A DNA stretch of 57,374 nucleotides, filler included, from Jimgerdemannia flammicorona (lineage: Eukaryota): assembly GCA_003990765.1 (NCBI GenBank). It is 3 parts of 3 records of this genome, joined end to end, with 100 filler letters (N's around TTAATTAATTAA, not from the genome) between each part and the next. Parts side by side here need not be neighbours in the genome. Positions count along the whole stretch, not along the records: positions 1 to 19,061 come from RBNJ01002038.1; 2 more parts are not named here. One strand, given 5' to 3'. Both the position numbers and the translations under genes were made by a program. The notes beneath the pieces are model-generated. The model was given only the letters and a program-made list of their open reading frames with translations. It did not search any database and had not been told where the DNA came from. Shown piece after piece: positions 1 through 47,139 of this stretch (within the stretch, counting starts at the first letter, position 1; every line of letters starts with the position of its first letter).

Positions 1-40
<40 letters not shown>

Positions 41-82
41 TCTCTGTCAGGAGGTCGCAATTCGTATCGTGTAACTACGAAC

Positions 83-378
83 CTTGCCGTTATTCGACGT
101 AACTTGTGTGCTCGGCAGATCTGCATTGGCCATTATTGGTATGGTGATATCTTTGCGCATGATGGACCGCTTGTAATTGGTATTTGTATTCTTCTGAAAG
201 TGGCCCTCTTTACTGAACAGGATCTCGTAATTGACCCCAACCGCAGCGACCATCGGAATTGAGGCACTCACGGCGCCCGGGGCACACCACTTGTTGTAGG
301 CGTTCTCGATATCAATGTTTTGATCACGATCATACTTGATCCATTGCTCTCCTTTGTAGTGCTGAGGGTCAGAATTAT

Positions 379-418
<40 letters not shown>

Positions 419-944
419 CGGAGGATGTGTAAAAGAGAACGCAGTTGTTGGTATAAAACACACATCACGAGCACTTACTTTTCCTCTAACATCCTCCTTC
501 CAGAACCACTGGTATGGGAGAGATTGGAATGTTGGCATGGCAGGAGTGGGATTCTGAATACGCAGAAAAACATTCCGTATTAGTATGCCATCAGTGTCAC
601 AGGAGATCACAATTCGTATCGTGTAGCCGCAAACCTTATTACTCGTGGGCTCAGCAGATCTGCTTACCGTTATTGGTATGGTGATATCTTTGCGCATGAT
701 GGACCGCTGGTAATTGGTACTTGTATTCCTCTGAACGTGTCCCTGTTCACCGAACAGGATTTCGTAGGTGACCACAGACGTGACACCGCCGACAATTTTC
801 ACCGAAGTAATCACGGGGATTGAGGCCCTCGCGGGGCCCGGGGCACTCCACTTGTTGTAGGCGTTCTCGATAGTAATATTTTGGTCACGATCATACTTGA
901 TCCATTGCTCTCCTTTGTAGTGCTGGGGGTCGGAAATTTAACGA

Positions 945-977
<33 letters not shown>

Positions 978-1110
978 TTTTAAAAAAAAAAAATTAATCA
1001 GTAAAAGAGAATAAGGCCGTCGTTGGTATGAAGCACACTCCACGAGCACTTACCTTTCCTTGAACATCCTCCTTCCAGAACCACTGGTATCGGAGAGGTT
1101 GGGATGTTGG
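83..1110 (-). repeat. Tandem duplication of a WWE exon-intron unit (~560-575 bp), each copy with an intron at the same position
   Basis: Near-identical blocks, e.g. ccttccagaaccactggtat at ~495 and ~1071, and tccattgctctcctttgtagtgctg at ~340 and ~901. The introns carry (TA)n at ~383-413 and (TTA)n at ~946-977. Confidence 0.9.
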
Positions 1111-4100
1111 CATGGATAGAACGCTTGAATCACCTAGACCCGTGGTAATCTCATCGTTTTCTATTTCTTTCCATTTCTCCGAGAGCACTTTTCTGAGTAT
1201 TCGATATACTTCCGTCGAATTCTGTTGATTGACACCCTCGAGATTAACACCTTCTCTATCCTTTGTCGGTGCCCCTTTCACCGCCTGTTCGGGCTTAAAG
1301 TCGATGATGCGCACTTTGTGAATCTGCGTTTTCGGCAAAGTTCGCATGACGGCATTCACAATGATCTTTGCGCCCTTCTCATGTGGAAATCCAGAGAGGC
1401 CCATGCTAATGGGCGGCAGGGCAACAGTCTTGCACCCTTTCGTGTTTGCCAGCAACAGGGCGTTGGTGATGGCCGCGTGCAGGAGCTCTTCCTTCTTTTT
1501 CGTACCAGAGGACCACACGGGTCCATTGACGTGTATGACGTATTTCACGCCTTTCGTTTGCAAGTCGCCGGCCGTTGTTACGATCGCATGCCCTTTCGTC
1601 ATAGTGCCGTGCTGCGCAATGTAGTTCTTGCATTCGTCGCGAAGTTGCTGACCAGCGGCATCGGCGATCACTTTGGCAATGCCACGCCCATGTTCGAGCC
1701 TCGCGCTAGCCGAGCTCACGATCGCGTCAACGGCTTCGTGAGCAATGTCTCCATAGACGAGCTACCAAACGCGATACAAAATGACGAAATAGAGCAATGT
1801 GAGCGAATTGCAATACCACGACGTGACTGGTTTCGTGCGTGCGATAGATAAATCTAGTAAATCAACTTTACCAACCTCGATAGCTTGATTAGTTGCCGGG
1901 ATTATCACACCGAAATCCATTTCCGGAGGAAGGATTTCGACGCAGTGTTGTTGTTCAATTTTCGTAACCTTATCTCTTTGCGCCAAAATGATCTCTGCCC
2001 GCTGACGGTCGATTCGTACTGGAGACGATTGCAACTCAGATATAACCTTGTCAGCATATGTCTTGAAACTGGCAAAAGCCTTGTCGATAGTGTTGCGTGC
2101 GCCAGAAATTTTGTATGAAAGGCAGTCGTCATTCCTTTCTGGTTTGATGCTGTGAACATAATGAATATTAATTAAATAGATGAAGATAGTTTCACATTAT
2201 TTCCGTTCATCATTCAAATCATGCACACAAGAGACCCGATCACAAGATTACACTTACCGCATATTATGCTGCATGGCGATCGCGTCGATTTCTTTTTCAT
2301 CTTTCCGTTTCTCAAACCATAAGCTGTAGCGGACGTCAGGAAACGTGTATGATCGCGAGGCACTTTCATTTTCCAGCAAAGTGGCCACGTTGACCTTGTC
2401 TGACACATCAACCACCTCATCTTTAACACCAGGGCCCACAACTGAAATGCCGGCGCTGATGCTAGTCCCGATGCCCGAAGCAACCACACCGGAGACGACA
2501 CCGGAGACGACAGCGGAACCAACAGACTTGGTAACATCAATGGCACCGGAGCCAACGGTGACGACACCAGAGCCGACAGCGGAACCAATGGACTTGGTAA
2601 CATTAATGGCATCGGATCCAACGATGGCGACACCAGAGCCGACGACCTTGATTTCATCATAGGCAGTACCACGAACGAACTTGGCACCATCGGCGACACC
2701 GTGGACGGCACCGGATGCGACACTGCCCCCGGCAACGGCGACCCCACCGACAACACCAGCAATAGCACCGAACCAGCTGCCGTCGGACTTGGGCATATCC
2801 TTCTGGGCAATAGCGACTCCGCCTACGATTTCAGCCGTCTTCTCTTCGACAATATCGGCTTCCTTAATGATCTCGGTGACGGACGTCCCACTACCAGATC
2901 CGATGATGATGCCACTAGGGCCAGCAACGTCCACCTTTTCTGCCACGATGTCAACTTCCTTGACGATGTCGATCTCCTTGATGATCTCGGTGACGGAGGT
3001 TTCGTTGCCAGATCCGATGACGACGCCACGAAGGGCAGCAACATCCACTTTCTCGCCGACGATGACAGTTTCTTGCCCGACCTCTCCGATATCGACCCCC
3101 TCCTTGTCGCCGAGGCTAACACCGAGCTCCTCGACGGTGGTAATGGTATCGGTCTCGGTTATCACTTCGACGATTTCTTCGACCTTCTTCGTGCTCGAGT
3201 CACCACCGACGACGACGTCTTCTTCCTCCACCTTGACAACCTCGGTTTGGCCGATAGTAACGATTTCCTCCTTGGCATCTGTTACAAAGAAGTATGCGAT
3301 TTTAGAATGAGTTATTTGGCACTGTAGGTTCAACGGAAGAAACCCCCCGGGATACGCAATATTAGAAGATAAATTACATACCCGTCAACGACAAGATCTT
3401 CTCATTAACCTTCCCTGCGGCACCCTTGCCGAGCTTGACAGCGCCGACCGCGGCAGCTCCAGCAGCAACAGTTGTGATGATAGCGGCGTCACCAATAACT
3501 CCAGCGGTATCCTTGAGAACGGTGCCAGCAACATCGCCAGTCTTGACAACGGCACTTCCAGCATACGTGGCACCATGAACAAGGCCGACGACACCTTCCT
3601 TAACGAGATTGAGATTGCCAGCGCCAATAGCACCATCCTTGGCCAGGATACCGGCGCCAACAGCGCCCGCAACGACGGCACCTCCAATAGCGACGGCAGC
3701 ATCCTTCTTCTCGGCTTCGGCGATAACAACAGTAGTCGCGGTGGCACCGACAAGATCGGTAGAGGATGGAACGGATGTCGAGGGCTTCTTCCTACCTTTG
3801 CCCTTCTTCGGAAAAATAGGAACCAGGAAGGTCCAGTGGCACTCGGGGTGCTGCTCACGGTGCTCCTTGGGCTGCTTCACCTCAGTAAGGAAAATTTCGA
3901 GCGAGGTCTTGCCGCCCAGAACGAGGTCCTTCGGGGTCAGACACAGGGACTTTTGGGTAAGCGAGAAAATGTACTCTTGGGGGTTGACTCCCCAGCGCTG
4001 GAAGACGCGGTCGCCGGCCTTGGCGGGGTTTTGGATCAAAGGCCAGTACGACTCCTTGTTGTCTAAAACATTGTTCAAATAATAAATAAATGTTAGATTA

Positions 4101-4631
4101 CCGTGCGAACAAAGATGGGGGAGAGGAATTAATTACAGGCGACAAAAACAAAAAGTATTTACCAGCGCACACATCAATGACCAAACGACTCTTCAAGTTT
4201 ATTATGTAACCTTTGCGGTAAGTCCAAAGCTGGCTAGCATAATCTTCGGAGCGCAGGCAGGTTAGGACGACCTCGGCACCAGCGTGCGTGGAAGAGTTTT
4301 GCACGTCGAAGACGAAGCCGTGAAGGGCACTCTTGATGAAGAACCATCCTTTGGGGAAATCGTTGGTATCTTGGATTTTCTTGTAGCGCCAGACGCTCCT
4401 GAAGCCATTGGGAAGGGCTCTCTCTTCGGCAGCGCTGATTAGCGGGGTGGTGAGGAGGACCTCTTCGCCGGAATCTGAATACGAGAGAGATTATTTCTTG
4501 TTTGTAGTGGCGGAATCGAGAGAAAAACAGCTTGTATATTGTCAAATGAAGCGGTTCCACTCCAAAAAAAAAAAAAACGTACCAGCTTCTATCTTGAACC
4601 TTTGACGTTTGGTGGTGGTGCTAGTGCTCAT
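83..4631 (-). CDS. Multi-exon ricin-B lectin - G/A/V-rich linker - KH-like - macrodomain - WWE - WWE protein (PARP14/PARP9-like architecture); 3' end lies beyond the window
   Basis: Phase-consistent GT-AG exons 4631-4583, 4474-4163, 4062-3382, 3278-2258, 2149-1876, 1761-1054, 922-635 (or 668), 553-479, 361-83. Ricin-B: FPKGWFFIKSALHGFVFDV..SQLWTY..FQRWG. Macro: IELVYGDIAHEAVDAIVSSASARLEHGRGIA..TTAGDL..YVIHVNGPVW..VALPPISMGLSGFP. WWE x2: YQWFWKED..WIKYDRDQN..IENAY..Y.RSIMR. Donor GTTCGT at 82 opens an intron that runs off the edge. Confidence 0.85.
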
Positions 4632-4780
4632 TATTGTTACGACAATGGACTGTGGGTGGTGAAGAAGGACACGGGGAGAAGAGGTAGTGTGGGTTGTGGG
4701 GAATGCGGGTGAGTTTTGGAATGTACAAGGAGGGTGCGGGTGGGTATATAAACAAGGGTGCGGTGGTGTATAGGGGGTAT

Positions 4781-4838
4781 CCAGGTGTCAAGATTGGGGG
4801 TGTCCAGGTGTCAAGATTGGGGGTGTCGAGGTGTCAAG
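4781..4838. repeat. ~2.5 copies of a 23-bp unit ccaggtgtcaagattgggggtgt upstream of the lectin-macro-WWE gene
   Basis: Direct repeats at 4781-4803 and 4804-4826, partial copy at 4827-4838; TATA-like tttatata on the minus strand at ~4745-4752. Confidence 0.7.
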
Positions 4839-5008
4839 CTTTTGGCTTTTGGAATCATACTGCGCATTGCTATATACCGTCTTATAGCCAGAGTGACGTA
4901 CGCCACAGCTGCGTCATTTAAGTGATGTATATATCCTCAGAAGCAATGGCTTTGATGGATTTCCTCAGCTCACGCGTGACGTTTGTAACCTAGCTGCCGT
5001 CAAAGTTT

Positions 5009-5058
5009 CATTGGCTAGCTGCTGCCATTGGCTAGTTGCCGCCACAGTTCCATTGGCT
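5009..5058 (-). promoter_or_regulatory. Three clustered CCAAT boxes (cattggct on + strand)
   Basis: cattggct at ~5009, ~5026 and ~5051, about 400 bp upstream of ATG 4631; function inferred. Confidence 0.4.
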
Positions 5059-5204
5059 TTGCTGCCATTTTGTCCCAGTTGATATAGGCGTTAATTATAG
5101 GGGTGTGACTCCTACTTGTGATTGCTTTGTTGTAGATAAATAAGCTTATCCCTTAGTCTATAAATGAGAATGTCGCTAAGTAGGTGATGAAAGAAAAAAA
5201 AAAA

Positions 5205-5560
5205 TTAGTTACATTTCAAAATCCAAATTTAACTATATTATAAAATAATAAATAATTAAATATAATTAAACTTATTAATATGTTAGTAATATTTTTAACT
5301 ATATTATTAATATTTAAATCATTTAAATTATATATATTATTATTTTATAATATAATCAAATTTGGCTTTATAAATTTAACTTATAAAATAAATAATATCA
5401 TCAAGAGTTTCAGAAATTTTGAGCCTAATGATAATGATTAAGTATAAAATAACCATAATAACTAAGTGACTTCTAGTTATTGTAAAATATTTCCTGAATA
5501 ACTTTCTAAGATATAAAGATTCAATTACTTCATTGCAGTAAGATGTAAAGAGGTAAAGAG
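5205..5560. other. Very AT-rich tract, probably a terminally decayed repeat
   Basis: Almost no C/G and no CpG; same texture as 28020-28440, 41100-41590 and 42715-43376. Confidence 0.5.
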
Positions 5561-6849
5561 GTTGTAGGGAGAGGGAGTGGGAGGAAGGATAATTATAGCA
5601 GTTTGTCAGAAGGGTGTAGAGTGTAGATTGAGAGAGAGAGGGGAGGATGAAGGAAAAAGTGGCGCATGCCAAGAGGTATATAAGTTGCATGGCGTCCATG
5701 GCACGTGAAAGCCTGATGCAATTAAATACTGTATATACTTATTTTTTCAACTAGCAAATTTGCTACCAGATACCAGATACACATTGATACACGATAGTGC
5801 TGATACGCCTGGAGCAGATACCAGAAACTTTTCATGTGATGTAACTACGACCCTCCACTTAGTGGATTCCTTAGCAAACGCGTCATCCTAATTAGATCAG
5901 ACTACAAACGGCCCCTTTTATTACTGTGAACCTCATAGAAACCACATGGCCAAGGCAACGGCTTACCCGAAACGATTGGCACCCGAACTACAACATAAAC
6001 CGCATCGTATCACTGTACAATACCAGAATTTGTGATGTAAACGACTTCCCTGACTTCTGACGTAAGCACCTGACAGATAGCTAAGCTGCGATGTTTATTG
6101 ATATAAATATTTTTCTTCATTTGCAATGGCAAGTAATGTAGGTATAAAGGCAATGCAATGAATATGGACAAAATGACTAATATTTGACAAAGCATCATAG
6201 CAGAAAATTCTTCAGGAATCATCAAATTGCAAGCTTTATCCAAAATATGTCAATCTGGAATTTATCCGAAATGGAATGCTGTAGAAGCAGATGTACTGGG
6301 TTCAGAATGCTGTAGAAACAGAATGCATCAATTTTGAATGTTGTAAAAGAAGATGCATTGAATCATAATGCCGTAGAAAATGATGCACTCATAATACTTC
6401 CACTCCAAATGTTGCTGAAGACGAATACACCAGAATGCCTAGAATGTCATAGAACCAGAATACATAAGGTGAGAATGACAAAAATATTTTGTGATGACGA
6501 ATTTGGACAAACCAGCAAGAAGACGCGGAATCCAAGGAACTATGGAACTTGGAAGAAGAAAGCCATAGTCCATTATCAGCAAAAGACGACAGGTTCATTT
6601 CCAGGCTTGACAGGTCGCCTTACGAAGTTTTATTTAGGCAAAAGCGTCGCGATAAATCCGACTTTTGCAGGCAAACGACCGCGACAAATTTCAAGTAGAA
6701 TTCACAGATGCCTGTTCCTTTGGGTCGCGAACACTGGACACGCAAAAGCCGTTCGAGAAATGCAGCCACGAGGAGCTTCAAGCTCTCTGGTATCGAGCCT
6801 TATGACAAGGAGCGTTATGAGCTGGTGGGACACGCTCTAGTTACTGGAC

Positions 6850-7055: not shown

Positions 7056-10000
7056 ATGGATATCGCAAGCGCGAGCAGAACCACCCACACGGAGAATGCC
7101 ATTTCTGTACACGACTGTATGTTTTGGACATGCTTGATGTTTGAGAGCGTGGCACGTAAAGACACTGAACTGTTTTTTTTGCTAATGCTTGCAGACGAGA
7201 GGATAACGGCAAGGATACTGCCTAACCTAGGCCATGACGTACACGATTTTCAAGTCTTCCATTGGAAAATCAAAAGTTGGCGTGCACTGACGGATAGGAC
7301 GCTCAGCCCGGAATTTGAGGCGGGCGGTTGGAAATGGTATGCATGCTGTCAATGTATTCGCACTTGAACTATCAGCCTGAGACAACTGGGGTTTTAACCG
7401 TTTTTTCCGCACATGCAGGAAGATTATGCTCTACCCTTTTGGCAACGGCCAGAACGAAAATTCCTCTATATATCTTCAATTCGCAGACCCCGGGGCGGCC
7501 GAGCAGGGAATGCATTCGTGCGTTCAGTTCGCGCTGGTGATGTCCAACCCGTTCGATCCGACCCAATGGGAGTATTACAATGCTCACCACCGATTTTGTG
7601 CTGACGAGTCTGAATGGGGGTTCACTCGATTCTACGATATAAACAAGATGTTTCAGCCAAATCACAGGCGCTCGCATCCCTTGATTGACGATGACCAGAC
7701 TACCATTTCTGCTTTCGTGCGTGTCGTAAAAAATCCTACTGGGGAACTGTGGCCCAACTTTGTTAGGTGAGTGTGCCTTGTGAGAAAATGTAGCGAACCC
7801 ATTCCTTGCGATTGTAAATGTAGCACACTGTTTGGGATCTTTTTACTTAGCTACGACTCCAAGAAGGTCACTGGTTTTGTTGGTCTCATAAACCAGGGAG
7901 CGACAGGTTACTTGAACACGGCTGTACAATGTTTATACATGATAAAACACTTTCGTAAAGCCGTCTATAAGATCCCAACGGAATCCGATGTACCCACCAA
8001 GAATGTTGCCTTGGCTCTACAGCGCGTGTTTCATAACCTCCAGTTCTCGGAAGTACCTGTTGGTAGGTAGGCGCTAGGATGCTAAGTACCGGAAAGAGTG
8101 CTGGAACGTCTTATAAGTCAGCCAATATCATTTAAATGTAGGTGGAGGTTTTGAATCCGCTCGGCTGTTTGGCTAACGAACAACGAACAACGATTCCGGT
8201 ATGCTTCATGTATGATTAGGTACAATGGAGCTAACAAAGAGTTTCGGATGGGGTTCTCTCGAAACGATCATACAGCACGACGTCCAAGCATTTACCCGTA
8301 TTTTGCAGAACAAGCTGGAATCAAAAATGAAGGTGGGTAGTAAATGCTAAATTATGCGCCATTTGATGCCAGATACTATGCTACAATACGTCTATCTGAT
8401 GATATTTTGCCATTTTTAGAACACACCGGCTGATGGCAACATGAAGAAACTATTCGTCGGCAAAATGAGAAGTTATGTCAAGAGCATTATTACCGATTAC
8501 GAGTCCTCGCGCGTGTATGATTATTATGGTAGGCCGAAAAAGCGCTTCTTTCGAATCACCAATGCAGATAAATATTGATTCTTGACTTATTCTGATTTCG
8601 CAATATATTAGATATTCAACTCGATGTGAAGGGGTGCAAAAACCTCTATGAATCTTTTGTGAAATTTGTGGCTCAGCACTCGGAGAAACAACAGATCGAA
8701 GGCCGCGGTTTGCAAAACGTCAAAAAGGGTGTTTATTTCGAGAGCTTCCCGCCCGTGCTATATATACAACTGAACCGGTATGAGTATGACATTTCAAAGG
8801 GTGCTATGGTCAAGGTGGGTCCAAGATATGAATAGGCGCATAGTTTCGAATAATTAATCGTCCGTCTTTTAGAAAATAATTAATGCCTTTGGTGTTTAGA
8901 TTAATGACCGCCATGAATTTCCATTGGAGATCGACCTCGAAGAGTTTCTTCCTCTGGCCACTGACAGCAACAGACCGCACAAATATCTCCTTCACGGGTA
9001 AGAGTGCTTGATCAGAAAAATAACGGCCAATGAGAACACCCCGCACATTGTTTGCATTGCAGGCTGTTGCTGACATTTCACTTTTTCATATTCAGCGTCC
9101 TAGTACATAGCGGTAGTCTTCACCGTGGCAAATACTTTGCTCTTCTGAAGCCCGAAAAGGACAGCACATGGTTCAAGTACGACGATGACCGTGTTACTCC
9201 TGTAACGGACCATGATGTGTTTGAGGATAACTACGGGGGTGAGGCGCCCAACGCCAACCAACTCATGGCCCTGAGACCACAAACGGAGGCAAGCAAAAAG
9301 GTTACGAGCGCGTATATACTTGTATATATTCGTGAGTCCAATGTCGACGAGGTGCTCGCGCCAATGGCACCCGGTGATATTCCACCCCATTTAAGTGCGT
9401 ATCGTTTCTTATTTTTCCATTTTTTTTTTTTTTTTTTTTATTCTTTCTATTGGGTTGTCTGCTCGGAGAACCTGGAAGCAACAAAGTTTTGTGGTGATTA
9501 GGAAAAAAACACATGGTTGTCATATTACAGAACTTTTATTGTTAACTTGCTGGTCTGAACGATTCACTAAGAAAAACATGTTGACGAGAAGGACCTGCAG
9601 GAAAAGTCTCTGACTGCCAAGGTGAGCTGCATTCAGCAGTTTTCGCGTAATATATGATTCCCTTGTTACAATATCTAATACATGTGCGATCATTTGCTCC
9701 AGGTCATGACAGACGAGACGTTGAAGGTACATCAAGGTTTCGATCTGGCGAATTTCAACGATACGACGAAGCAGTCAGAAATATCATCCTTCCTCGTAAA
9801 GAAGGGGGAGACGTTTGCAGTTTTCAAACAATCAGTCGCAGACCATTTCCAAGTCCCAGTCGACAGATTCAGGCTGTGGATTCTTGTCACCCGACAAAAT
9901 CGGACGGTCAGGCCTGACCAACCGATCCCGGAGACAGAAGCCAATTCGTGTGAGCGTTGGGATATTTATTTTATTTTATTTTATTTATTGAATTTCCTTC

Positions 10001-19203: not shown

Positions 19204-20248
19204 AGCAGAGCGGAAGAGTTTGAGTCAGATCCTCCCGTGTAAGCCACATTCTCCACGTGCGCAGGATTCATAGCTTCTAACTTGTCTTGGCAATAGCCTT
19301 TCACAACCTAATATATGGTGCATGAACAGACATACCTCTGGTGAGGGAACGGCGTCGCCAAGAGAATCCACAGAAAATATCTGACCTATACCGCACATTT
19401 GTGAGATAGTAGTCGATACCAACGAAATAACCCGAGTATAATCAATCTCTGGAAGTTTCTTCTTTTTTTTTCTAAAAAAAATAAAAAGGGAGGGAGTATT
19501 ATTGATGTCCTGTGGCTAGAAAGAAAACTAAAGTACTAGTAATACGAGACACGTGACCGGACACACAACGTGCACGAAGAACGAGGGCTTTTGACGCGCC
19601 CGAGGCTAGGGTTGAACGGATGGCGTGATGGGGTGCGGCGGGTGTGTCGTTTATGGCTACTATAAGTGCCAGCTTTTGGAGTTTGTGGTTGCTATGGGGT
19701 GCTGCTATAAGTTCCCTTGCAATGATAGGTACGGGGCAGGTGAAGGTATACAGTGCGGAGGATTGCATGCCGCTACGGACTGATAATGTATGTACCTTTC
19801 CGTCGTTCGTGATTTGAGTGGGAAGATCTTTTTTTGGGCGCACGCAATCCCACTCAATCACTTAATTTGGCATTCCCAAACGCATTGAGCGGAGACCATC
19901 TTGCTACACAGCAGGAGATGAGGGCTATATCACACGGAGGGCAAGGTCATCTGGGCATGTGATCCGCCGCGCCGCACTCCAAATCAGAGTGAATGTTGGC
20001 TGGAGGGCTATGGGCGATGATTGATGAAGGTTTGGGGTGATTGGGAGGGTCTCATCTGGGTATGTGGTGAAGGGTGGGCTCAAAAGGGAATTTGGCAGTT
20101 GCTAGGTGGCACTCGGAACATGTTCCCCATTATAGCCGCAATCGACAAATCCAGCCGTGACGTGACAAAGCCAAGCCCCCTCCCCTCCATAAATCTGGGA
20201 CTGCCACGACTTCTTCCTTTAATCCCCCCCTCCCACCCCCATCCCCAT

Positions 20249-22935
20249 ATGCACCACCACCATCACCAGCAGGACTCCTCTTCCGTCCAGGTCTACAACA
20301 TGGCCCCCGTGCCAGACCAGTCTGACAATTTTGATTCTGACGGTTCCAACGACGACCAGGCCGATAACAGCAACACCGGCAACGGCGGTGGCATTGACCT
20401 CGACCTCTCTGCAAACCCTGACCTCCGCAAGCTCGCCATGGAATCCACCGAAACCCTCGAGGCCCTCGCGGCCAAGACGAATTCGGCTGCACCTGGTGCC
20501 GCGGCCGATAAGGCGAGGTCGCTGTTTGTCACGACATGGTAGGTTTTTTGGGCTGAGATGTCTCCGACTCGCTATGCAATGCGCGTCAACCCGCGTCAAC
20601 CCGCGTCAATCTTATACACACACACACACATATATATATATATATTACAGGCTCTTTGAGAATTACGAAGTCGAAGAGGATCATAATGTCCCGCGAAGCA
20701 GCATGTACGCACACTATAACAAGGTCTGTCAGCAACAAGGGGTGCGTCCCGTCAACTCCGCAAGTTTTGGAAAGTTGATCCGTACTGTCTTCCCGATTTT
20801 GAAGACTCGGAGGTTGGGAACAAGGGGACAGTCAAAATATCCTTTTTTTTTATTCTCATACGCGGGGCGAGAACCACCGCGAGGTTTACCAAGATGTTTT
20901 TCCCCCCTAGCCATCCGTTATTCCTTGACTTACTTTTTCACACGTACCATTACTGCGGCATCCGCATAAGGAACCCGGCAAACCCGGTCAGGAGGTCGGG
21001 CGCTCCACAACGATCATTAGACCTACCCGCAGGTCCTGCACACATGCTGTCGATTGCCAAGTACAAACCCTCCATATTTTTACAGTGCATCCTTCTACCG
21101 CCTTCCAAACCGCAACCCCCACCTAGATAAACCCGTCTCACATCTTTTTTACATTCCTCCACATCAGCCACGAACCCCCCCTCTCGATCGACGGGCAGCC
21201 CTCGAGCTTCACCTCTCTGGATCAGCAGAGCCTGTACGCGCACCCATCCCTGTCCTCGGGCGGCGCGCACGTGGTTCCGTCGGCACACCATTTCCAGTCT
21301 GCCAACCCGGATGACAAGGAGGTGGTACGGCTGCCCGAGTTCTCGCCCGTGCTGGAGACCGGGCCGCCGCAAGGCGTTTCCATCAGCGCTGCGCAGCAGT
21401 TCATACATCAGTACTACCGTGTCCACTGTCAACAGATCCTGGAGAAGATTCAGATGACGAAATTTTTGGAGGTTCGACGGACGCGTCGTCTTTGGGCGTG
21501 CGGGTGGGATGTGGATGGTGTATGCGTATGGCATTGTTTTTGGAGATGGTCAGTTGATGTGCCTTTTTCCCGATGATTTCCAGGTGGAATCGGTCATCGA
21601 GCGGTACTGGCAAGACTTGCCACACGAGCAGCGTGAGGTTGCCGATACACCAGAAATGATTGAACATATATGCCGTGCAGATTCCGTCTTGTACGAGGTA
21701 CGCCTCATACAATTTCTGCCTGTTCAGAAAAAAAGGTCATGTCGTTAATCGAAGTTTTGTATGTCAGTACTTACTGATTGGCGCAATATGCTCTCCGCTT
21801 CCACGTTCATTCTTTGGCCAAACAAGACCGTCATGACATCGCTCTTGCCCAGTGTGCTGCACATGATGCCCATCAACCTTATTCAGACTGTCCGGCACTT
21901 TGCTCGACAGCTTGAATTTTGGATAGCCACCGCCACGACGAGCTACTCCCAGGAGCTTCGCTCGGGTAAGGGCCAAGGTATGTTGGATTGTTTCGAGTTC
22001 AAACCATGGGGGAGAGATATATAAGGACCATCACAGCTCATCAATTTCTACGGTTCGATTAATGCGAACTGAACAATGCGAACTAAACGCACCTCTACCT
22101 CTTTCTTGCCCTTGGCGAACACAACAGTGGCCCACGTGTTTACGCAGCAACTCCGGCGACATACGTCGCTCAACCACTTGGCACAGGCAGCGGCGGCGGT
22201 GCTGGAGAGTCCCGAACAGATGACGGCGATGATGATCGACTGGGGTCGAATCGACTTTGAAAATATCCGTGATCAGGCGTCGTGGGTGTGCGAATGCCAC
22301 AAGAACGATATCATGCAGAACAGTGAGTGTCGACTTGTTTTTGGGTTCTTGCGCAGGGGTTTATGCGTGATCCGTCTCATGGGGCAGTCGTTCTCTTGAT
22401 AAATCAAACGTCGCCGTGCTCATATGCTCTTTCAACAGTGGAGGTCGACTTCAAGCATCTGCTGAAGAACGGGGTCAGGTTGGAGAACTGGACAAACTGG
22501 CTGGAGGGCGTCGTCGCGCGTTATTTGGATGAGGTTAGTGTTATCTGAAGATTGTGATTGAATCCCATTTTGGCATGATGACGTGAGGCGTGCATCATGA
22601 CTGAAACATTCGCGTCCCATACATGGAATCTTGCATATAGAAAGAGACACCGCGCTACGTGTACAACGCGCGTCAGTTCCTTATGAAATGGTCCTTCTAC
22701 TCGTCGCTGGCCATCCGCGATTTGACGATGAAGAGCGCGAACAGTTTCGGTATGTCATTTTTGCGCTCTTGGTTCCTTTTTGAAATTGATCTTTTGGTAT
22801 TGAAATTTCTTTGCTTTCCTCGGACTCGTCCCCCAACCAGGCTCATTCCACATCATGCGCCTCTTCTTCGACGAGTACATCTTCTACCTCGTGGAGCAGC
22901 GCATTGCCGCGGTCAACACGAAGCAACAGTTCCAC

Positions 22936-23000
<65 letters not shown>

Positions 23001-23022
23001 GGGTTCTTCAAATTTTGTGTGA
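20249..23022 (+). CDS. RFX: RFX-family winged-helix transcription factor (Sak1/Rfx1-like) with dimerisation domain and poly-Q tail
   Basis: DBD [54 protein letters not shown]. Also LRRHTSLNHLAQAA, ARQFLMKWSFYSSLAIRDLTMKSANSFGSFHIMRLFFDEYIFYLVE. Stop at 23020-23022; start ATG uncertain. Confidence 0.93.
20837..20943 (+). other. U12-type (minor spliceosome) AT-AC intron
   Basis: 5' site ATATCCTTT, branch TTCCTTGAC (20921-20929), 3' AC; removal restores GQSK-YHYCG. Confidence 0.92.
22943..22998 (+). repeat. (CAG)n tract encoding poly-Q in RFX
   Basis: CAG run with CAA interruptions in the last exon. Confidence 0.9.
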
Positions 23023-23819
23023 AAGTAATTTCAGCGAGGACGACTGGTTTTGCTGGTCTCACATTGCATGACAGGGTCATGATGTTGTACAGATTTGTCA
23101 TTTTTGCCTTTCTCCTTCCTGGATTTATTTGTCGTTTCTCATCCACGTTCGTAGAAGTCAGCAAATAAGTATCTTGCAATCGCCTCCTTCACCACCTTTT
23201 TTTTTTTTTTCCTCTCCCCTTTTTTTTTTTTTTTTTTCCTCTCCCCTTTTTTCTTCTTTATTTTCATTCGAATCTTCATTGCCCATATGCGCAAATAGTT
23301 GAAAATAATGATGTATTGGAATATGTGTGAAATGATGCAAGTTGTTTTCTCTTCCGTACGATGGGAGGCCATTTTTGCCGAGGCGCATGTCGCTGCCGGA
23401 GACGTACCAAGCTAATCCGCGGGGTTTGAAAAAGTCGAGCGGACAATCTTACGGGAGTCGAGATCGTTTATTTTTGGAATTGTTCTCGATCTGTGGCATC
23501 AGTAACACGATCGATTATCGACCAACATTATATAACTATGAATGTCCAAAAACGACTTAATTAGTCCTAATCCCAACAAATATATATATATACTTCATTT
23601 GAAAGGAAGAAGGAAAAAAAAAAAAAATCATCTATAATCAGCGAAAAACTCGTACCTGAAACCACACTACCCTCTCACAAACATGCGAGATCTCATGGAC
23701 TGTGACTGGGACTTGTGCCGAGGGCAGGGAACGCCGCAATAACTCGATCTGTCGGGCTGGCGTGGGCAATTCGATATGGAGTATTCTCACAACACCAAGC
23801 GCCTCAGCTCACAATACCT

Positions 23820-25937: not shown

Positions 25938-27897
25938 CTATTTCCCAGTCCCGCTACTCGCTCCGCTCAACCTCTTCCATAACAGCCACGCCACGCCAAT
26001 CACCGCCCCCGTCGACACTACCGCCGCTGCCGTCACTTTCCACGCCATCCCCTCGTCACCCCTAGACCTAGACGCCTTAGATCGACTCTTCTTCCGATGC
26101 TGGGACTTTTTCCGCTTCATCTTGCCCCTCTCGGTGGTCGCCGCGGACTCCGCCGGCAACGACTCAACGCTGGACCCGGCGCCCTCGTCGTCGATCTCTT
26201 CGCCAGGCCTCTTGGCGTCCCATTCGACCTCGAGCGTCTCCGGCATGCTGGCCCTCAAGCTCCCCTCGACATCGAGCTTGCGCGCGCGCGTGAACCACCG
26301 CGCCGCCTCCCACCGGTCCGGCATATCCATCCCGTTGCCGTTCAGATGCATGATGCCCACGTTGAAAGCTGACTGTGCGTGCCCAACGACTGCAGAACGT
26401 CGCCAGTACTCAATAGCCATAACGGGGTCCGCAGCGATAGACTGGGATGTCTCGTCCAGTTGGGCGTCGTCGGGAGTTCCCTCTAGGTAAATGAGGCCGC
26501 TCTGGAAAGCGGAGCTGCAGAAGAACCGCTCGGTGACGGTCTCCGGAGGACGGTTACGCGGGGTGGGGGCGTCGTGATCGCCAATATCGAGGAAAGGGAC
26601 CGTCAGGACCATAGCGCGGTTGAAGTAGCGCAGCGCCTGGATGTAATCACGGGCAATCCCAGCCTCGAGGACGCCGGTAACGTAGGTCATGCCGACGATG
26701 TAACAGGCCTCCGGGTCCGGGCCCGTCGTGCCGGATTCAGGGTCGTTGGAGAGGTCGGCCGCCCGCTTGTGCCAAGAGAAGGCGAGGCGAGGGTCGCGTT
26801 CCGGGTAGACGGGAAGCAGGGTCAGGTTGTCGATGGAAGCTTGGTTGCCGATCTGACGGATCGAGGGACGTAAGGGACGTGATTGCAATGGTGTTATATA
26901 TGGCTGGATCACAAGGAGTGATGCGTGTGAATCATAAATATAATACGAAAAATCATACCTCGTACATAGCGGCAACTTTGAGCATTGATTTCGTGTGCCC
27001 GTGCTCAGCGGCGTGTAGGTAGAACTTGTACGAGTTCTACAAAGAGATCAAGTTGGATGGTTGAGTAATTGTATATAAAGTGTCAGGGAATCCAGAGCTA
27101 GTTGTTTGACCAAACCCCAGTGTTCGGCTGACAAGCTATGCACAAACATTTTTCACTATCCGCATGTTTCATTTTTCGCACGAACATTCAACAGTAACCT
27201 ATATCTACTCACCTCTGCATCCCTCTGGCTCTCAAACATAACACCCAGATGGTACGCGCTCGTCGCGTCTAAATCCATCCGCTCCGTGATTCCTGATGTG
27301 ACGAGCATAGGCCAGATCACGTCGTCGCCCTTCTCCAGATGTATTGTCACGACGCGAAACCGGTGCGATGCCCGTCCAAGAGGGGACATATTGATACTAC
27401 CGCTATCGCTGCTTTCCGGCGGCAGATCCATGGCCGGCGGCGGGAGGATCAGCGATGTGTTGGGCGAGAGCGGCGGGGTTATAAAGGCGAAGGAGGAGCC
27501 GGAGGAGGAGAGCGCAGGAGAGTTGGCGAGCGAGGACAGTGCAGAAGAGGGTTTGTCAAGCTGCCATAGAGATTCCTTGGGGCGGATGGTGGAGTAGAGT
27601 TTGCCCTACGGAATGGATTAAACGCGCAAAGCCAGTTTGCCGCAAAGTTTCCTCTGTGAGCGAGCTTAGAATCTCGGAACGCCAAGCGACACAATACACC
27701 CATCGTACCTTCACGACAGGCTCCTGCCCTCTGACGCCGGCTTTGAGAAGCGTTGATTCGATGGTGACCTCCATGTCCTTCGCCCTGAAGTGGTCAAGGA
27801 CCAGGAACGAGACAGTGAGCTGGTCATCGGTTTGAGACCAGATGTAAGTGTTTGGGTTTGAAGGATATAAGTCCTCGTCCTGTAGGGGGGAAGCCAT
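25938..27897 (-). CDS. CS/p23 (NudC-like) domain + Sel1-like repeats + C-terminal transmembrane anchor
   Basis: YIWSQTDDQLTVSF..GKLYSTIRPKESLWQL..VVTIHLEK..WPML. Sel1: AAEHGHTKSMLKVA, SAVVGHAQSAFNVGIMHLNGNG. Tail VTAAAVVSTGAVIGVAWLLWKR. GT-AG introns. Confidence 0.82.
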
Positions 27898-28666: not shown

Positions 28667-30463
28667 CTAATAACTCTTGTGATGTACCACCGACGGTCCA
28701 GACTCGTTGTAATCAACTTTGCTGATATAATTCGTCGGGTTTGGGAAGACGAGCTTGAAAACAAGCACGCGGAACATCAGTGTCAGCCAAGATTATAATA
28801 CACACTGCTCCCAAATACGCAATTCTGCTCATTTCTAATCTATATCGCCTCCCAAAAAATATAATTCTCCTCCTACACTACACCCTCCACCCTCACCTTG
28901 GCCACGATCTCTCCTCCTAACCACGCGGAAAACCGCTGGAAGTGCGGCTCCCTGAGCACGGTGAAATAGTCCGGGATCCGGAGAAACTTGATATCGCGTG
29001 ACTGCGTGTCGCCAGCGTTATCCGAGACAGGGAGGTAAGGGAGGAGCTCGGCCTTGATGCGCTCCTTGATTCCTTGTAGCGGTCGTGTTAAGTTATGCGG
29101 AGACGGTTTGAAAATTACACAAGAGATCAGACATGGCACGGTGAAAGAACGCCCGCCCCAATATTTGTTGTACCAAAGCGTCATTGGAGGCCCCAAAACG
29201 ATAATAATATCAATGATGAGACCGACCTGCAATCAGCGCCCCTCCGCCCGTCACCACGAGATTCTCCCACAACCGTAGCCGAATTTCGGCGGGTTCGCAA
29301 GTCATGACGGATAGCTTGATGGCCTCAGCCAGGCCCGTGAGGGTCGTCCGGCCGATGAGGGTAGGATCAAATATCGGGTTGTAGAGGCTGTGGCGGTAGG
29401 AGCCGATGGTGACCTAGATGGAGGTTGGGATTTGAATGAGGATGGACAAGATCGGGGATTATGTGATGGTTGATGAGAGAGTATGAGATGACAGCATCAT
29501 GGAGTTTCTCTTGAATTACCTTCCTCCCATTATATTCGAGCTCCGCCCTCTCCATCGGCGGGATCACGGGCACCTGAGTCGTCGGCGGCGCGGCAGCCGC
29601 GACGGCGGCCACGCCGGGGACGACCTCCTTGCTCTCCTCGGTGGTCATCTCAACCTCGTATCCGACGGACACGTCGCACACCCCGGGGGCCTCCTTGACG
29701 AACCTCGCGAACTCCAAATCCAGCAGAGTATCGACGTCGTCACCAAACTCTGCTCGGAGCTGTTCGTCTGCGCGTAGGTGGGCGAGCAGGTGCTCGTCAG
29801 CCTCGCGGCCAGCCACGTCCAGGGTCTGGATACTGTGATACACGATCAGGCTATCTACGATCGAGGTGACATTTGTGGTCTCATGGCCAATGTCGATGAC
29901 CACGCCCGAGACCGAGCCACAGCCATACAGAGACATGAGGGGCTGCTCGGCCACGTAGAGGCCCGGGACGTTGAAGGATTCGAAAAAGATCTGGGTGATG
30001 CGCTCGTATTCTTCTTTGGTCCAGGAGGTAGGGACGGAGAGGAGGACGGGCGACTCGTTGCGAGTTTTTTTTATAGGGAGTTCTTTGAAGAGAATCTGGC
30101 GCCTGATTGTGCGGGAGTACTGGAAGGATGAGAAGAAAAGTTTTTTTTGGAAAGCGAGGATGAAGAGAGGGTAATGTAGAAACAAGTCTGTACCATAACG
30201 TCTCCAGCTCCTCCCAGTTGTTGATGCGTTCACATTTCAGCGGAGTGCCGATTTGAGAGGTTTGGTAAACCTAATGAGATAGGAGGCGAATTAAGAGGCA
30301 TTGCTGGATGGGCAGCTGGCTCCTGGCAAAGACAGAGTTGGGCAAAATGTGTCATTACCACGGAGGGCGGCTGGTTCGTGTCGTGCACACCCATGCCGGC
30401 CTTGATCTCATAGGAGCCATTGTCTATGACGACAAAGTTCTCCTCGCGAAGGGTGAAAGACAT
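28667..30463 (-). CDS. Actin-related protein, probably nuclear Arp9-like
   Basis: VVIDNGSYEIKAG, QIFFESFNVPGLYVAEQPLMSLYGCG..GVVIDIGH, LRIPDYF, SAWLGGEIVAKL..YISKVDYNESGPSVVH; stop at 28667. Confidence 0.88.
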
Positions 30464-32394: not shown

Positions 32395-34160
32395 TTAAAG
32401 CGGCACTCTCTTGATCGCGTGCATGATCCACAACGAGCTAGTAAGTAGCCCGAGCGCGCCTGCCTGATGCGCGGAGGCGAGCTCGATCGGGACCATGTAG
32501 AGCAAGGTGGAGATACCTAGAGTGACCTGGACGAGAGCGACGCCCATGGTGGTGTTGACGGCCACGCGTGCGTTGGGAGGGAGAGGGAGGCGCCGCGCGT
32601 ATAGCCAGAGCGCCGTCACTGCTAGAAAGGTGAATTCGGCCTAGGCGGTGCGTGGTGAATGGCACAGTCGATAGTTTTAATATTTATATGACCGAATCCC
32701 ATGAGGTCAACAAGCTGGATGTGCCACATTTCTTATCTCACCCCGTCCCCCTCACGTCCAACTTACCATCACGCGATGATCGAATTGCACGAGAACGGGG
32801 TTTTCGAGCGCGTTCCTCAGCTTCGTGCGATCGCCCTCCTTGACGTAGTGGTCGGACCAGAGCTCCTCGGAGCTTGGCACAATCCGGCCACCCATGAGCG
32901 GGAATTCGTTGTAGATCAGCCCGGCGTCCAGCCCGGCCACCAGGCCACCGGACATGGCCGTGAAGAAGATGAGCATGGTAAGATAGTGTGCGTAACGACG
33001 GAATGAGGCCAGAGCAGGATTGCGGAGGGCTTCGGCAACGGCCTGAAAGTTTTGGGGGATGGGGTGAATTGAGGATCCCCCTTAATACATATATCCGCTG
33101 CATTTCGCCCATATAATAATATCCAACACCCACCTTAGGATATGATCCCGCAGCAATCTTTGCGTCCCTCAGGATTCGCGCGCCGACCATGACGGTCGCA
33201 GTATAGATGGCGAAGGCAGTGGCCAGATGTGCAGTGAGCCGGTACTGACTCACGCGAGGCACGGCACCCGGTTGCTCGAGGAGGGCCTTCGCAAGCCCGG
33301 ATTTGACCATATACCAGCCCATAAATCCCTAAAAGCATTGATGTTCGTTCCGTGTCTCAGTATCCACAAGAGGCGATAAACCAGATAATGCCGCTGCCGT
33401 CTTACTTGAAATCCGACCAGCGCCGTGATACCAAATACAACATTCTTGGTGGCCGGGCTCATGTAACCGCGGGCGGCGAAGTAGAGACCCGGGACGATGA
33501 AGGAGACGCCGATGAGACGGCCGATCATGCGGTGCACCCACTCCCAGTAAAAGATGGACTTGAACTCGTGGAGCGTCATGTGGCGGTTCAGGCTGGGTGG
33601 GTGTATTAGGACGTGTCAGAGTTTTGTGGAGGTGAGATAAGTGGGAATAGACACAAATCACGGGCCGACATACGAATACGAGCAACGGAAAGCATCAAGG
33701 AGGACCCGTTTGCTTACATCTTGTACTCGGGGAACTGCTTGTATTTGTCAAACTCCTCTTCCCACTCCTGCTGTGACCTAGGCGGCTTCATTCCGGAGAT
33801 GACGTTCCACTCGGTGATAGACAGTCCGCTCTCCGTCAGACGCGTCAGCCCGCCGACAACGACGATCATAAAGGTCATAGCGGCGTTGAAGTATAGCCAG
33901 TAGCCAACGATGGGCCGCGTGGTCGCGGCGGCGTCGGCACCGAGGGTGGGGGTGACAGCGCTGTAAGCCCTAGCGAGAAGAGGTCGTGCGGACGCGAGGG
34001 GCGACGCACGGAGGGTGGTGGCGACGCGAGGGAGGATTGGGGGGCTGCGGATAGATAGGCGCGAAGAATGGCGGGGAACGCATAGCGAATATCCGGCGGG
34101 CGATTTGAGGAAGGCAGTTGCCAGCAGACGGCGGGTGGCTCCGCATTTCGCGATGTTCAT
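32395..34160 (-). CDS. COX15: Heme A synthase COX15
   Basis: VVVGGLTRLTESGLSITEW, FYWEWVHRMIGR, GWYMVKSGL, PRVSQYRLTAHL, GLVAGLDAGLIYNEFPLMG, VQFDHR, LASAHQAG; mitochondrial-type presequence. Confidence 0.97.
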
Positions 34161-34507
34161 GATTGGGGGTGTTGCGTGTTGGGTTGGAAGAGAAGGACAT
34201 TTGCAGATCGGGGCGACTGCTTTTTGAACCATGAACCCAATTTGGTCATGGCATCATGCCACTTTTTTTTTTTTTTTTTGGCTAATAGTCCGCGGATATG
34301 TCTGCAATAGGTTCAGTTAACAGGATGCGTGAATCTTTATAATTACATCAGTTGCATTGGTTACATAGTCACGGAATGGTCCGAGCTGGCAGCACCATTG
34401 TCGTATGTTAGTTCGTCATGATTGTGGAAGGGGGCCCGTATTGTCGTTGGATTCATTTCAATATGTTATTTTTCACAGCATGTTTAAAATTGAGTACCAG
34501 TATCACT

Positions 34508-44929: not shown

Positions 44930-47139
44930 ACTTAGTGCCCATTGGCTGGTGATTTAAGATGAATCCCTCACTCTTAAGCTGAAAAATGAACAACTCCCAC
45001 AACAACTACCCTATCTACAAGAGTCACCCCTATAAGAATTCAAGATAAGATAAAAATGCATCCCCCCATATTCTATGGATATACTACTGAAGAATCAATC
45101 CTGACCTTTATTGAAGACTTTGAATAATTCACTGCTATATGAGCCCTTAGTGTGAATGCAAAATTGGTCCTTCTATCAGTCAGCCTTAGAGGATCTACTA
45201 GAGATAAGTTTAATGCAGCCACTATTGCTAATAATAGTGCAGCCAAACTTGCCAACATGAAGGCCTTCCTTAGAACAACATACTATACTGAAGAGATCAA
45301 GCAAGCTCTCAAGGATCAACTCAATATTATCTGCCAGAGACTTAGTGAAGATTTCAACTTATTCTATATCTGAATCTGCTACCAGATTGTCTTGGCTGGC
45401 TATGATGATGCCCTCAAGGAACAAATAGCAGATTCAACCTTCCTCAAAAGAGTTCACTCTGAAATTACTCTAGCAATCTGGTCTATCTCAGCTGCACTGA
45501 CCCTTGATCAGAAAGTGGTCTTTACACAGAGATATTAGACTGCCAGACACCCTGCTGAGCACTCAATGGAGAAAATAACTGGTATCAAGATAGAGCCATC
45601 AAAGCCAACTAGTATCATATCTGCCATAGTTGTAAACAGACAACCATTTCCACCTACCCCCAAGACAGCCAAAGCTGACCCAGTGGAGAAACTCACTAAG
45701 TAGTTTACTGAGATGACTACATACCTTGGTGATGTTTTTAGAGAAGTCCAAAGTACCAACAGGAGACCAGTGCAGAGATTTGCAGCTGCTATAGAAGAAT
45801 ATAATATCACATGCTTCAGATGTGGAGAAGAAGGCCACTATGTAAAGAATTGTATGACCAAAACAAGATATAAAGCCAAACTAAGCAATGCTAGCAGATC
45901 TAGAGAATAAACCAATACAGTAGTCATCGAGGAGATTGGTGATACTAATGATGAAGAATACTATAAGGAGCTTAAATTCTACTCTGCTACTGAAGGTACC
46001 AGAACTCAGTCCAAGCCCTATGATAAGAAGAGCAACAGCAAGCCAGTTGGAAGACTAAAAAAGACCCCAGCTATTACTATTCAAAGCAAGACTCAACCTA
46101 AGGAGATTGATCAAGACATGGAGTTAGATGAAGCTACCTGCCAAATTATTGAAGGCACTACTCCAGTCTCAGGAGAAAGTAAAAGCAAGAAGAAACAGAA
46201 GCTGTACAAGACCAAGATCCACTAGTATAATATCTACAAGGACCTCAAGGAACAGAAGATCAATGCTACTTTTGGACAGCTAGTCAAAGTCCCTACCTTC
46301 AGATAGCAGTTGAGAGTAGAACTTATAACTACTACTAAGAATCAAGAGTACAAGATTGTAGAAGCTCACAATGTACAGGAAGAATCTGAAAACTCAGGTA
46401 AAGAATTCAAAGACCAGCACAAGACATCAGCCTATACTCCATGTCAGATTGAAGACTGTAGCTTTAATGCTATCATTGATACCAGTGCTGGAGGATACCT
46501 CATGAGCAAGAAGGCAATTGACTGCCTAGGCTGAGATATTGAAGAGTCCACCAAGATAGTCTATGTTACAGCAGATAGTATATGAGCTACCCCCCTTGGC
46601 AAAATCTGAGAAGTCTCCATCAAGATAGAAGGAGCTACCATCCTAGTAGATGTGATTGTTATAAGTTCCACCAACTATGACATTCTCATTGGCAACCAAT
46701 GGCTTCATAAGGCCAAGGCTATCATTGACCTCAATGTCCAGAAGATGTAGATCAACTATAGAGGAAAAAAGGTATGAGTCTCTATCAATGTCCACAAAGG
46801 AGTTCTACCAGACATAGAGGAAGGAGATGAAGAGAATACAGAGGTCTTCATGCACTCAGTGAACAAGAACAAGAACAAGATACCCAAGCTCACAGATGAG
46901 CAGTAGTACAATAAGATCATCAATAGCTATACCTCTCAAGGAAGATGCCCCTATAGTACTAGGATGTACTACTCTGAACACCTGAATGACTGCTGGTCCT
47001 ATATCAGTAAAGTCAGGAAAATCCACCAATAGAAACACAAGCAAGAAGCCACTGAAGCAAAAAGGAAAGCTGAAGAAGATGACCAGCCCTCTGAGCTTCA
47101 GACTGACAGTGATAATGAACAGAAACAAGAATCAGACAT

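Follow-up and report, generated by a model that had tools for sequence, protein, structure and literature searches.

Macro-PARPs of the PARP14-like type (clade 3) have been studied almost only in animals, where they are interferon-induced antiviral enzymes. In the available portion of Suskiewicz et al. (2023; PMC10450202), human PARP14 is described as having eight type I KH domains, one of which is split by macrodomains. The available text of Perina et al. (2014; PMC4245714) places the PARP14-like ancestor early in the unikonts, does not name fungi for the PARP14-like type and lists clade 3 PARPs of rhizarians that carry H_lectin or transmembrane domains, while the words 'fungi' and 'fungal' do not occur in a 2026 review of PARP14. 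Fusions of lectins to enzymes are described elsewhere: as far as the accessible accounts go, Mtx consists of an ADP-ribosyltransferase (ART) joined to ricin-like lectin domains (PMC9503650) and the mushroom lectin PSL1a of a lectin and a protease. The gene described here lies on the minus strand, between positions 4631 and 83, of a 57,374-nucleotide (nt) stretch of DNA from assembly GCA_003990765.1 (Jimgerdemannia flammicorona), the whole of which is referred to below as the window. It is one real, transcribed and spliced gene of PARP14-like lineage, and it carries a lectin head.

Gene structure and transcription

The gene model comprises the following exons.

4631-4583, minus strand, exon 1, which holds the start codon ATG (4631-4629)
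4474-4163, minus strand, exon 2
4062-3382, minus strand, exon 3
3278-2258, minus strand, exon 4
2149-1876, minus strand, exon 5
1761-1054, minus strand, exon 6
922-668, minus strand, exon 7
553-479, minus strand, exon 8
361-83, minus strand, exon 9

Stop-to-stop frames between 47 and 4631 gave recognisable protein pieces, which were joined via canonical GT..AG introns, and the nine exons read in a single phase from 4631 to 83. If the donor GTTCGT after base 83 is used, the model leaves the window after 1218 residues; if that donor is left unused and the frame is read through to an in-frame TGA at 49-47, it comprises 1229 residues. For intron 5 the donor GTAAAG was dropped as it breaks the frame; the donor GTTGGT at 1875 keeps the frame, gives a canonical macrodomain start and is the one found in RNA contigs. 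The N-terminus is hydrophilic, with no hydrophobic 19-residue window before amino acid (aa) 241 and hence no signal-peptide-like core.

Contigs of the public sequencing runs X1 and X2, presumed to be RNA, and X3, a root metatranscriptome, were aligned to positions 1-4700 of the window; X3 covers only 2356-4396 and X2 nothing within 3298-3925, gaps which are not evidence of absence. Joints of the form CT..AC (GT..AG on the minus strand) occur at 553/668, 1761/1876, 2149/2258, 3278/3382, 4062/4163 and 4474/4583, such that six of the eight in-window introns are removed at exactly the predicted bases in contigs of X1, X2 and X3, and the runs thus do contain cDNA. The joint at 4474/4583 is present in both X1 and X2, X3 record 16 crosses the exon 3/4 junction in phase with 0-1 differences, and X2 record 8 crosses exons 6, 5 and 4. 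X1 record 3 (928 nt) contains 890 nt of exon 4 (2258-3147) and crosses into exon 5, bridging the low-complexity exon to the KH-like exon across the breakpoint proposed below. The in-phase GT-AG model and the RNA joints at six of the eight introns bear out the nine phase-consistent exons of one spliced reading frame that were proposed in the preliminary description of this DNA.

Many X1 and X2 contigs match parts of 1257-4396 at 90-99% identity, including over the KH-like exon, and a 44-nt contig island in the macrodomain (1292-1335) is flanked by unlike sequence. From such variant contigs, the organism seems to express several related copies of the gene. Contig depth is ~13-19 for the window-like X1 contigs and in the thousands for the variant contigs, which hints at other expressed copies, although this measure cannot rank the genes. 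One X1 contig passes from exon 5 into a diverged intron 4 (2150-2160 onward) and could derive from an unspliced transcript or from a related copy with a transcript starting there.

The 5' untranslated region extends past 4700, the X1 loose end at 4686 being the window's own sequence. A 23-nt tandem repeat (2.9 copies, 95% matches) occurs in the 5' leader at 4773-4838, inside the stretch beyond 4686 covered by the X1 contig, and the block just upstream of the gene, 5000-5600, is very AT-rich (GC 0.19-0.25).

The PARP14-like part of the protein

The second half of the protein contains the following features.

2008..2358, minus strand, KH-like module of type I topology, aa ~655-735, split by intron 4 (2150-2257; joint 2149/2258)
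1876..2007, minus strand, conserved stretch (aa 736-779) that separates the KH-like module from the macrodomain, kept in the Endogone homologue P0001
1360..1719, minus strand, macrodomain of the MacroD/PARP14-macro1 type (Pfam Macro; joint 1761/1876)
668..1095, minus strand, WWE domain 1 (Pfam WWE), formed by the end of exon 6 and exon 7 around the intron at 923-1053 (joint 553/668)
134..520, minus strand, WWE domain 2 (Pfam WWE), formed by the end of exon 8 and exon 9 around the intron at 362-478; second duplication copy

The macrodomain matches the Pfam family Macro (PF01661) with an E-value of 2.3e-32 (111.8 bits against a cut-off of 22), and its best solved relative is 3vfq, human PARP14 macro1-2 (E 6e-30), followed by DR_2288 and YmdB. 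Two stretches match the Pfam family WWE (PF02825; E 7.1e-15; 55.6 bits, cut-off 21.1), and the macrodomain and two WWE domains that had been read from the sequence are both upheld by family scores above the Pfam cut-offs. The WWE pair is a tandem duplication, introns included, with a unit of ~540-575 nt that is 84-88% identical (40-1125, minus strand). The second copy is without 24 nt (8 codons) of the first, and the donor GTAAGC at 667 that is used by the first copy is absent from the second. The order of macrodomain and WWE, accompanied by a KH module, is that of the clade 3 macro-PARPs.

Searching with the macrodomain exon among proteins of 414-2000 aa yielded one close homologue and three distant macrodomain proteins. 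The close homologue is P0001, a hypothetical protein of 1420 aa from Endogone sp. FLAS-F59071 (BC937DRAFT_89291), which is 58% identical over exon 6 and carries Macro and PARP catalytic (PF00644, E 2e-13) domains together with weak WWE, KH_1 and KH_PARP14_6 matches. The solved chains nearest to its catalytic domain are those of PARP14 (E 2.8e-13), PARP15 and PARP12. The likeness to PARP14 that had been suggested for the window gene is thus corroborated, the macrodomain being nearest to PARP14 macro1-2 and the homologue containing a PARP14-like ART along with KH, Macro and WWE. No relative was found in metagenomes, which were scanned once with an exon motif of 38 nt and once with a macrodomain alignment.

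The KH-like segment of the window gives no match to any Pfam family, the KH families included, and it is 44.7% identical to residues 548-708 of the Endogone homologue over 161 aa. Residues 545-692 of the latter were modelled with AlphaFold2 (AF2) after the exon pieces of the window had been added to the alignment, so that the fold belongs to the orthologue. Residues 17-93 of this model have a block-mean predicted local distance difference test score (pLDDT) of 62-92 (at least 76 from residue 21) and a strand-helix-helix-strand-strand-helix topology. In a Foldseek search against the PDB no match reached E<=1e-3, and nearly all of the matches listed are type I KH domains with TM-scores of 0.6-0.7 (normalised to the target), among them hnRNP K KH3 (best, E 5.8e-3), MEX-3C, BICC1, PCBP, vigilin and NOVA. 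The KH-like nature originally assigned to this segment therefore holds, through a type I KH fold modelled on the orthologue and its KH-type structural neighbours. The GXXG loop between KH helices 1 and 2 is the nucleic-acid-binding element of KH domains; it is found neither in the window ('..FEKRKDEKEIDAI..') nor in Endogone ('..FEKYKDEKKLYEI..'), and its absence resembles the KH-like modules of PARP14, PARP9 and DTX3L. These modules are tied to protein-protein contacts in the portion of PMC11080071 that was available. By analogy with PARP14, the conserved segment at aa 736-779 may represent the first part of a split KH domain, and its equivalent in the orthologue was modelled by AF2 at low confidence.

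Human PARP14 and the window gene share type I KH modules, a macrodomain and WWE, the ART of the Endogone homologue being nearest to those of PARP14 and PARP15, and the macrodomain directly after the KH-like segment is comparable to the split KH domain in the available description of PARP14 (PMC10450202). Human PARP14 differs in having three macrodomains, whereas the window gene has one, along with two WWE domains. Furthermore, human PARP14 has the order KH8-WWE-ART, while the Endogone homologue has KH-like modules between WWE and ART, and the N-terminus holds RRMs and a KH array in human PARP14 but ricin-B and a low-complexity region in the window gene. Pfam scans of the window frames, in which the N-terminus was covered piecewise and not as a spliced whole, and of the Endogone homologue gave no RRM match.

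The lectin head, the low-complexity region and the fusion point

Two features make up the first half of the protein.

3818..4415, minus strand, ricin-B-type beta-trefoil, aa ~37-202, split by intron 2 (4063-4162)
2401..3748, minus strand, low-complexity region, aa ~226-640, split by intron 3 (3279-3381)

An exhaustive phmmer search with exon 2 against 1.84 billion representatives recovered 218 proteins with E<=1e-3, of which 42 reach E<=1e-10 and 13 reach E<=1e-30; 150 of the 218 were listed and 88 of those were scanned with Pfam. Ricin families (PF00652/PF14200) were found in 83 of these 88 (14 of 15, P0103, and 68 of 72), most of them above the cut-offs, and relatives carrying ricin families reach E 4.6e-92. 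The spliced model aligns without a break over the exon 2/3 junction to the ricin domains of these relatives (aa 37-202), with 39% identity over 173 aa to the Apophysomyces protein P0009 (E 4e-27). The named ricin relatives belong to the Mucorales and to J. flammicorona. A threefold QxW pattern is the hallmark of ricin-B domains, and motifs of this type occur at the expected spacing as QLW (aa 98-100), QRW (aa 142-144) and a degenerate CHW (aa 195-197). A ricin-B domain without a signal peptide had been proposed, and the ricin-family relatives, the spliced alignment and the absence of an N-terminal hydrophobic core agree with that proposal. Exon 3 alone has no Pfam match, and an Atlas search with it gave only low-score beta-trefoil leads (0.77-0.79). 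Word-index searches with exons 2 and 3 against longer proteins gave none, a weak negative as the exhaustive search later found in-range relatives that these had missed.

This lectin module is promiscuous, with relatives P0039 and P0063 fusing a GTPase-like N-terminus (MMR_HSR1/Dynamin_N) to the same ricin subfamily. Other ricin relatives are fused to astacin, amidase_2, a beta-lactamase fold, a lamin tail domain and DUF3759.

The low-complexity region extends over ~415 aa (aa 226-640) and is rich in V (19%), G (16%), A (13%) and I (9%). It matches no Pfam family and gave no usable Atlas match. The region also contains plain tandem repeats with periods of 38 aa (z 6.0) and 22 aa (z 4.3). The 11-residue periodicity expected of synuclein- or perilipin-like amphipathic repeats is weak at aa 226-345 (z 2.5, reached by 27 of 2000 shuffles), so that such repeats are no more than a lead. 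There are four zones of 19-aa windows above a Kyte-Doolittle (KD) value of 1.6. G/A/V stretches with charged flanks occur at aa 241-262 (3634-3699, KD 2.12) and aa 516-538 (2707-2775, KD 1.79) on the minus strand, and both are transmembrane-like in hydrophobicity. The AF2 model of exon 4 alone, computed without an alignment, has a mean pLDDT of 34, a value in which disorder and the missing alignment are not separable. The ~415-aa, G/A/V-rich stretch without a confident fold is consistent with the long low-complexity linker envisaged after ricin-B. Compared with the window, the contigs differ in the length of this region in eight instances, all multiples of 3, namely five indels of 21, 6, 6, 6 and 3 nt and three larger skips of net 105 (110 out, 5 in), 135 and 93 nt, which argues that the region is coding.

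The Endogone homologue aligns to aa 640-1040 of the model (52.6% identical, E 4e-128) and not to aa 1-640, so the lectin and low-complexity parts stand where that protein has its KH array. Both proteins have the KH-like module, the macrodomain and WWE, and the post-WWE residues of the homologue match the off-window exon described below. The homologue differs in its N-terminal KH-like array with a proline repeat, in having neither ricin-B nor a G/A/V-rich region, and in its single WWE domain as opposed to two. Within exon 3 the ricin domain ends and the low-complexity region starts, and homology to the Endogone protein begins at 2403, inside exon 4 and away from its edges. Position 2366 is the last at which an X2 contig agrees with the window, and 255 differing letters follow. 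As this departure lies beside the start of the homology, the join is placed inside exon 4, and the breakpoint between lectin and PARP14-like parts likely falls at ~2366-2412.

Recurrence of the fusion in a second protein

None of the 88 Pfam-scanned ricin relatives carries Macro, WWE or PARP. When the macrodomain, WWE, KH, low-complexity and Endogone segments (the ART included) were run by phmmer against the 150 listed ricin relatives, a single match was obtained, between the Endogone KH array and the J. flammicorona protein P0103 (E 7.9e-20). This protein of 667 aa (BC936DRAFT_144793) consists of ricin-B, a basic linker after '..W.FLVP.F', nine acidic repeats of the TETDITIVD type (T/E/D/I/V) and KH modules, the latter corresponding to residues 317-492 of the Endogone homologue (38% identity, E 9e-22; KH_PARP14_6 E 9.3e-5). 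It thus has the same succession of ricin-B, basic linker, low-complexity repeat and PARP14-like KH modules as the window gene. It differs in that the join lies at another KH module (equivalent to residue 317 of the Endogone protein), an extra partial ricin domain is present upstream and the ricin domains are only ~35% identical.

Since P0103 also joins ricin-B to PARP14-like KH modules, the fusion recurs in the order and is not unique to this window. Literature searches for PARP14 or macrodomains with fungi, Mucoromycota, ricin or Jimgerdemannia returned no paper on such a fusion. The earlier statement that the fusion was known from no described protein consequently needs qualification, as in the databases the ricin/KH-PARP14-like architecture is rare, yet not unique.

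Continuation of the gene beyond the window

Two features mark the edge of the window at which the gene leaves it.

77..83, minus strand, end of exon 9 (last base 83) with the donor GTTCGT (82-77); loose end at 83 in one X1 contig
1..36, plus strand, poly(A) run at the window start, inside the last intron

One X1 contig follows the window to base 83 and then continues with 27 foreign letters, whose in-phase translation is NPTPVDYKY. The Endogone homologue reads '..ANKPSLVDYKYWKEK..' directly after its WWE, which matches these off-window residues. That the gene continues off the window, as had been supposed, is therefore borne out by a contig that splices at base 83 into an exon matching the post-WWE residues of the homologue, and the first nine residues are all that is available of this next exon. 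The first four residues of exon 8 are the same as those of the off-window exon. As the poly(A) run lies within the last intron, the assembly probably broke there. Going by the layout of the homologue, the transcript beyond 83 would most likely carry further KH-like modules and a PARP14-type mono-ADP-ribosyltransferase domain.

Interpretation

With moderate confidence, the host is regarded as a Mucoromycota fungus close to the Endogonales and the product as a chimeric clade 3 (PARP14-like) ADP-ribosylation protein. In this chimera, ricin-B, a basic linker and the G/A/V-rich region take the place of the N-terminal KH-like array of the Endogone homologue, and the last KH-like module, one macrodomain and the tandem-duplicated WWE are retained after the join. 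Having no signal peptide, the protein would be expected to stay in the cytoplasm, where the lectin head may take over targeting from the lost KH array and is predicted to bring an ADP-ribose writer/reader module to glycan-bearing ligands. The WWE pair is predicted to add ADP-ribose reading to a macrodomain predicted to bind ADP-ribose more than it hydrolyses it.

Several observations weigh against this reading. A catalytic domain, which would lie off the window, is not seen for this gene. Exon 2 alone falls under the Pfam cut-off (RicinB_lectin_2, 20.8 vs 25.6 bits). The joints 361/479 and 922/1054 are unlisted among the contigs, simple repeats at 369-423 and 938-1000 within those introns having been skipped, and the joint 4062/4163 between exons 2 and 3 occurs only in variant contigs of X1 and X3, each with 5-12 differences from the window. 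No one contig covers the entire gene, and the contigs cannot prove a single molecule. P0103 is flagged 'LOW QUALITY PROTEIN' and its model stops before any macrodomain. Lastly, the macrodomain has VSSAS where the YmdB chains have VNAAN and PARP14 macro1 has VNASN (Ser for Asn), and GLSGFP where these have GVYGYP and GVFGFP, respectively (Ser for Tyr/Phe). The Asn of the 'NAAN'-like motif and the aromatic residue of 'G-x-[YF]-G' are important for MacroD-type hydrolysis. The Endogone homologue retains N and Y at the two positions, and the Asp in 'VDAIV' is retained in the window. In alignments to solved relatives the window macrodomain is thus without the hydrolase-type Asn and aromatic residue, which counts against a combined reader and eraser, and it is probably more of an ADP-ribose binder than a hydrolase.

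The protein may be a cytosolic glycan sensor or immune protein, as the preliminary description proposed. A wider proposal is that lectin-headed PARP14-like enzymes would form a family in the Endogonales and serve as cytoplasmic glycan-triggered ADP-ribosylation sensors, marking for example endobacteria or glycan-exposing ruptured endomembranes. Glycine-zipper-like hydrophobic stretches of the G/A/V-rich region could then tether the protein to membranes or condense it there, and the family would be a fungal counterpart of animal PARP14 immunity whose sensing head differs. This proposal is speculative and considered unlikely. Clade 3 PARPs that bear lectin or membrane modules have a precedent in the Rhizaria, but the rhizarian proteins differ in their H_lectin fold and supergroup, and no KH-macro-WWE context is reported for them in the available text (PMC4245714).

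It is quite doubtful that the gene encodes a defence chimerolectin or toxin, the lectin of which would bind glycans in the gut or on the surface of fungivores or competitors so as to deliver an ADP-ribosylating or ADP-ribose-processing enzyme. Such a role has ricin-type lectin-enzyme precedents in Mtx (PMC9503650) and PSL1a, as far as the accessible accounts describe them, and related ricin domains occur joined to many enzymes (astacin, beta-lactamase fold, amidase_2, among others). The partner here is, however, a large signalling-type array inherited from a lectin-less PARP14-like ancestor, and the homologue has an ART of the PARP type (ARTD). In favour of a toxin, the defence lectins of fungi lack a signal peptide and reside in the cytoplasm. 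Counting against it, Mtx and pierisin carry the cholera-toxin-like kind of ART, and toxins of their type are characterised by an R-S-E (ARTC) catalytic domain and by features for secretion or delivery, whereas the ART of the homologue belongs to the PARP family and the N-terminus is not signal-peptide-like. PSL1a, the further lectin-enzyme chimera MOA and the Mtx/pierisin-type toxins are effectors that are small or secreted and whose enzymatic part is of ARTC type or a protease. They resemble the window gene in uniting a ricin-type lectin with an enzymatic module, an ADP-ribosyltransferase in Mtx. They differ from the window gene, in which the lectin is N-terminal and is joined to a signalling array of PARP type that includes reader domains.

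It is likewise rather improbable that the gene is a young chimera lacking any selected function, in which a recent rearrangement set a ricin/low-complexity 5' part on a PARP14-like paralogue and the product is now transcribed and drifting. The WWE duplication, with its introns and its 84-88% identity, shows recent structural change, Ser stands at the two macrodomain positions where the Endogone homologue has N and Y, a hand count of 24 listed sites at which window and variant contigs differ shows no third-position bias, and the variant contigs suggest several related copies. Against drift, nine exons maintain an open frame through at least 1218 codons, all eight low-complexity length differences keep the frame, and J. 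flammicorona has a ricin/low-complexity/KH fusion of its own, the ~35% ricin identity between the two fusions pointing to an architecture that is old and has been retained.

Very improbable, finally, is a lectin/low-complexity gene beside a separate KH-macro-WWE gene, the two being distinct transcription units or joined by an artefact of assembly: both strands of the low-complexity region have more than one open frame, which makes an open frame there weak evidence, the X1 contig running from exon 5 into diverged intron 4 at 2160 perhaps represents an unspliced or internally started related copy, and the window ends in a homopolymer, but X1 record 3 links 890 nt of exon 4 with exon 5 over the breakpoint, the exon 3/4 junction is spliced in phase, exon 3 carries both the ricin end and the low-complexity start, and the Endogone homology starts within exon 4 rather than at an exon edge.

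Under the preferred reading, a lectin-headed PARP14-like protein, the gene and its Endogone and Jimgerdemannia relatives indicate that an early-diverging fungal order retains the KH-macro-WWE-ART layout and actively remodels it, through WWE duplication and differing join points. A nucleic-acid- or protein-binding head would have been exchanged for one of carbohydrate-binding type (ricin-B). If the lectin directs ADP-ribosylation, this would constitute a simple natural experiment on the targeting of macro-PARPs and could tie the recognition of glycans into ADP-ribose signalling in a mycorrhiza-related fungus.

Other features of the window

Pfam matches elsewhere in the window comprise the following.

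9034-9498, plus strand, UCH, in another window frame
20223-23165, plus strand, RFX DNA-binding and BCD domains
25941-27047, minus strand, Sel1 repeats
29370-30236, minus strand, actin-like
32741-34253, minus strand, COX15
47033-48766, plus strand, retroelement with dUTPase and reverse transcriptase/RNase H

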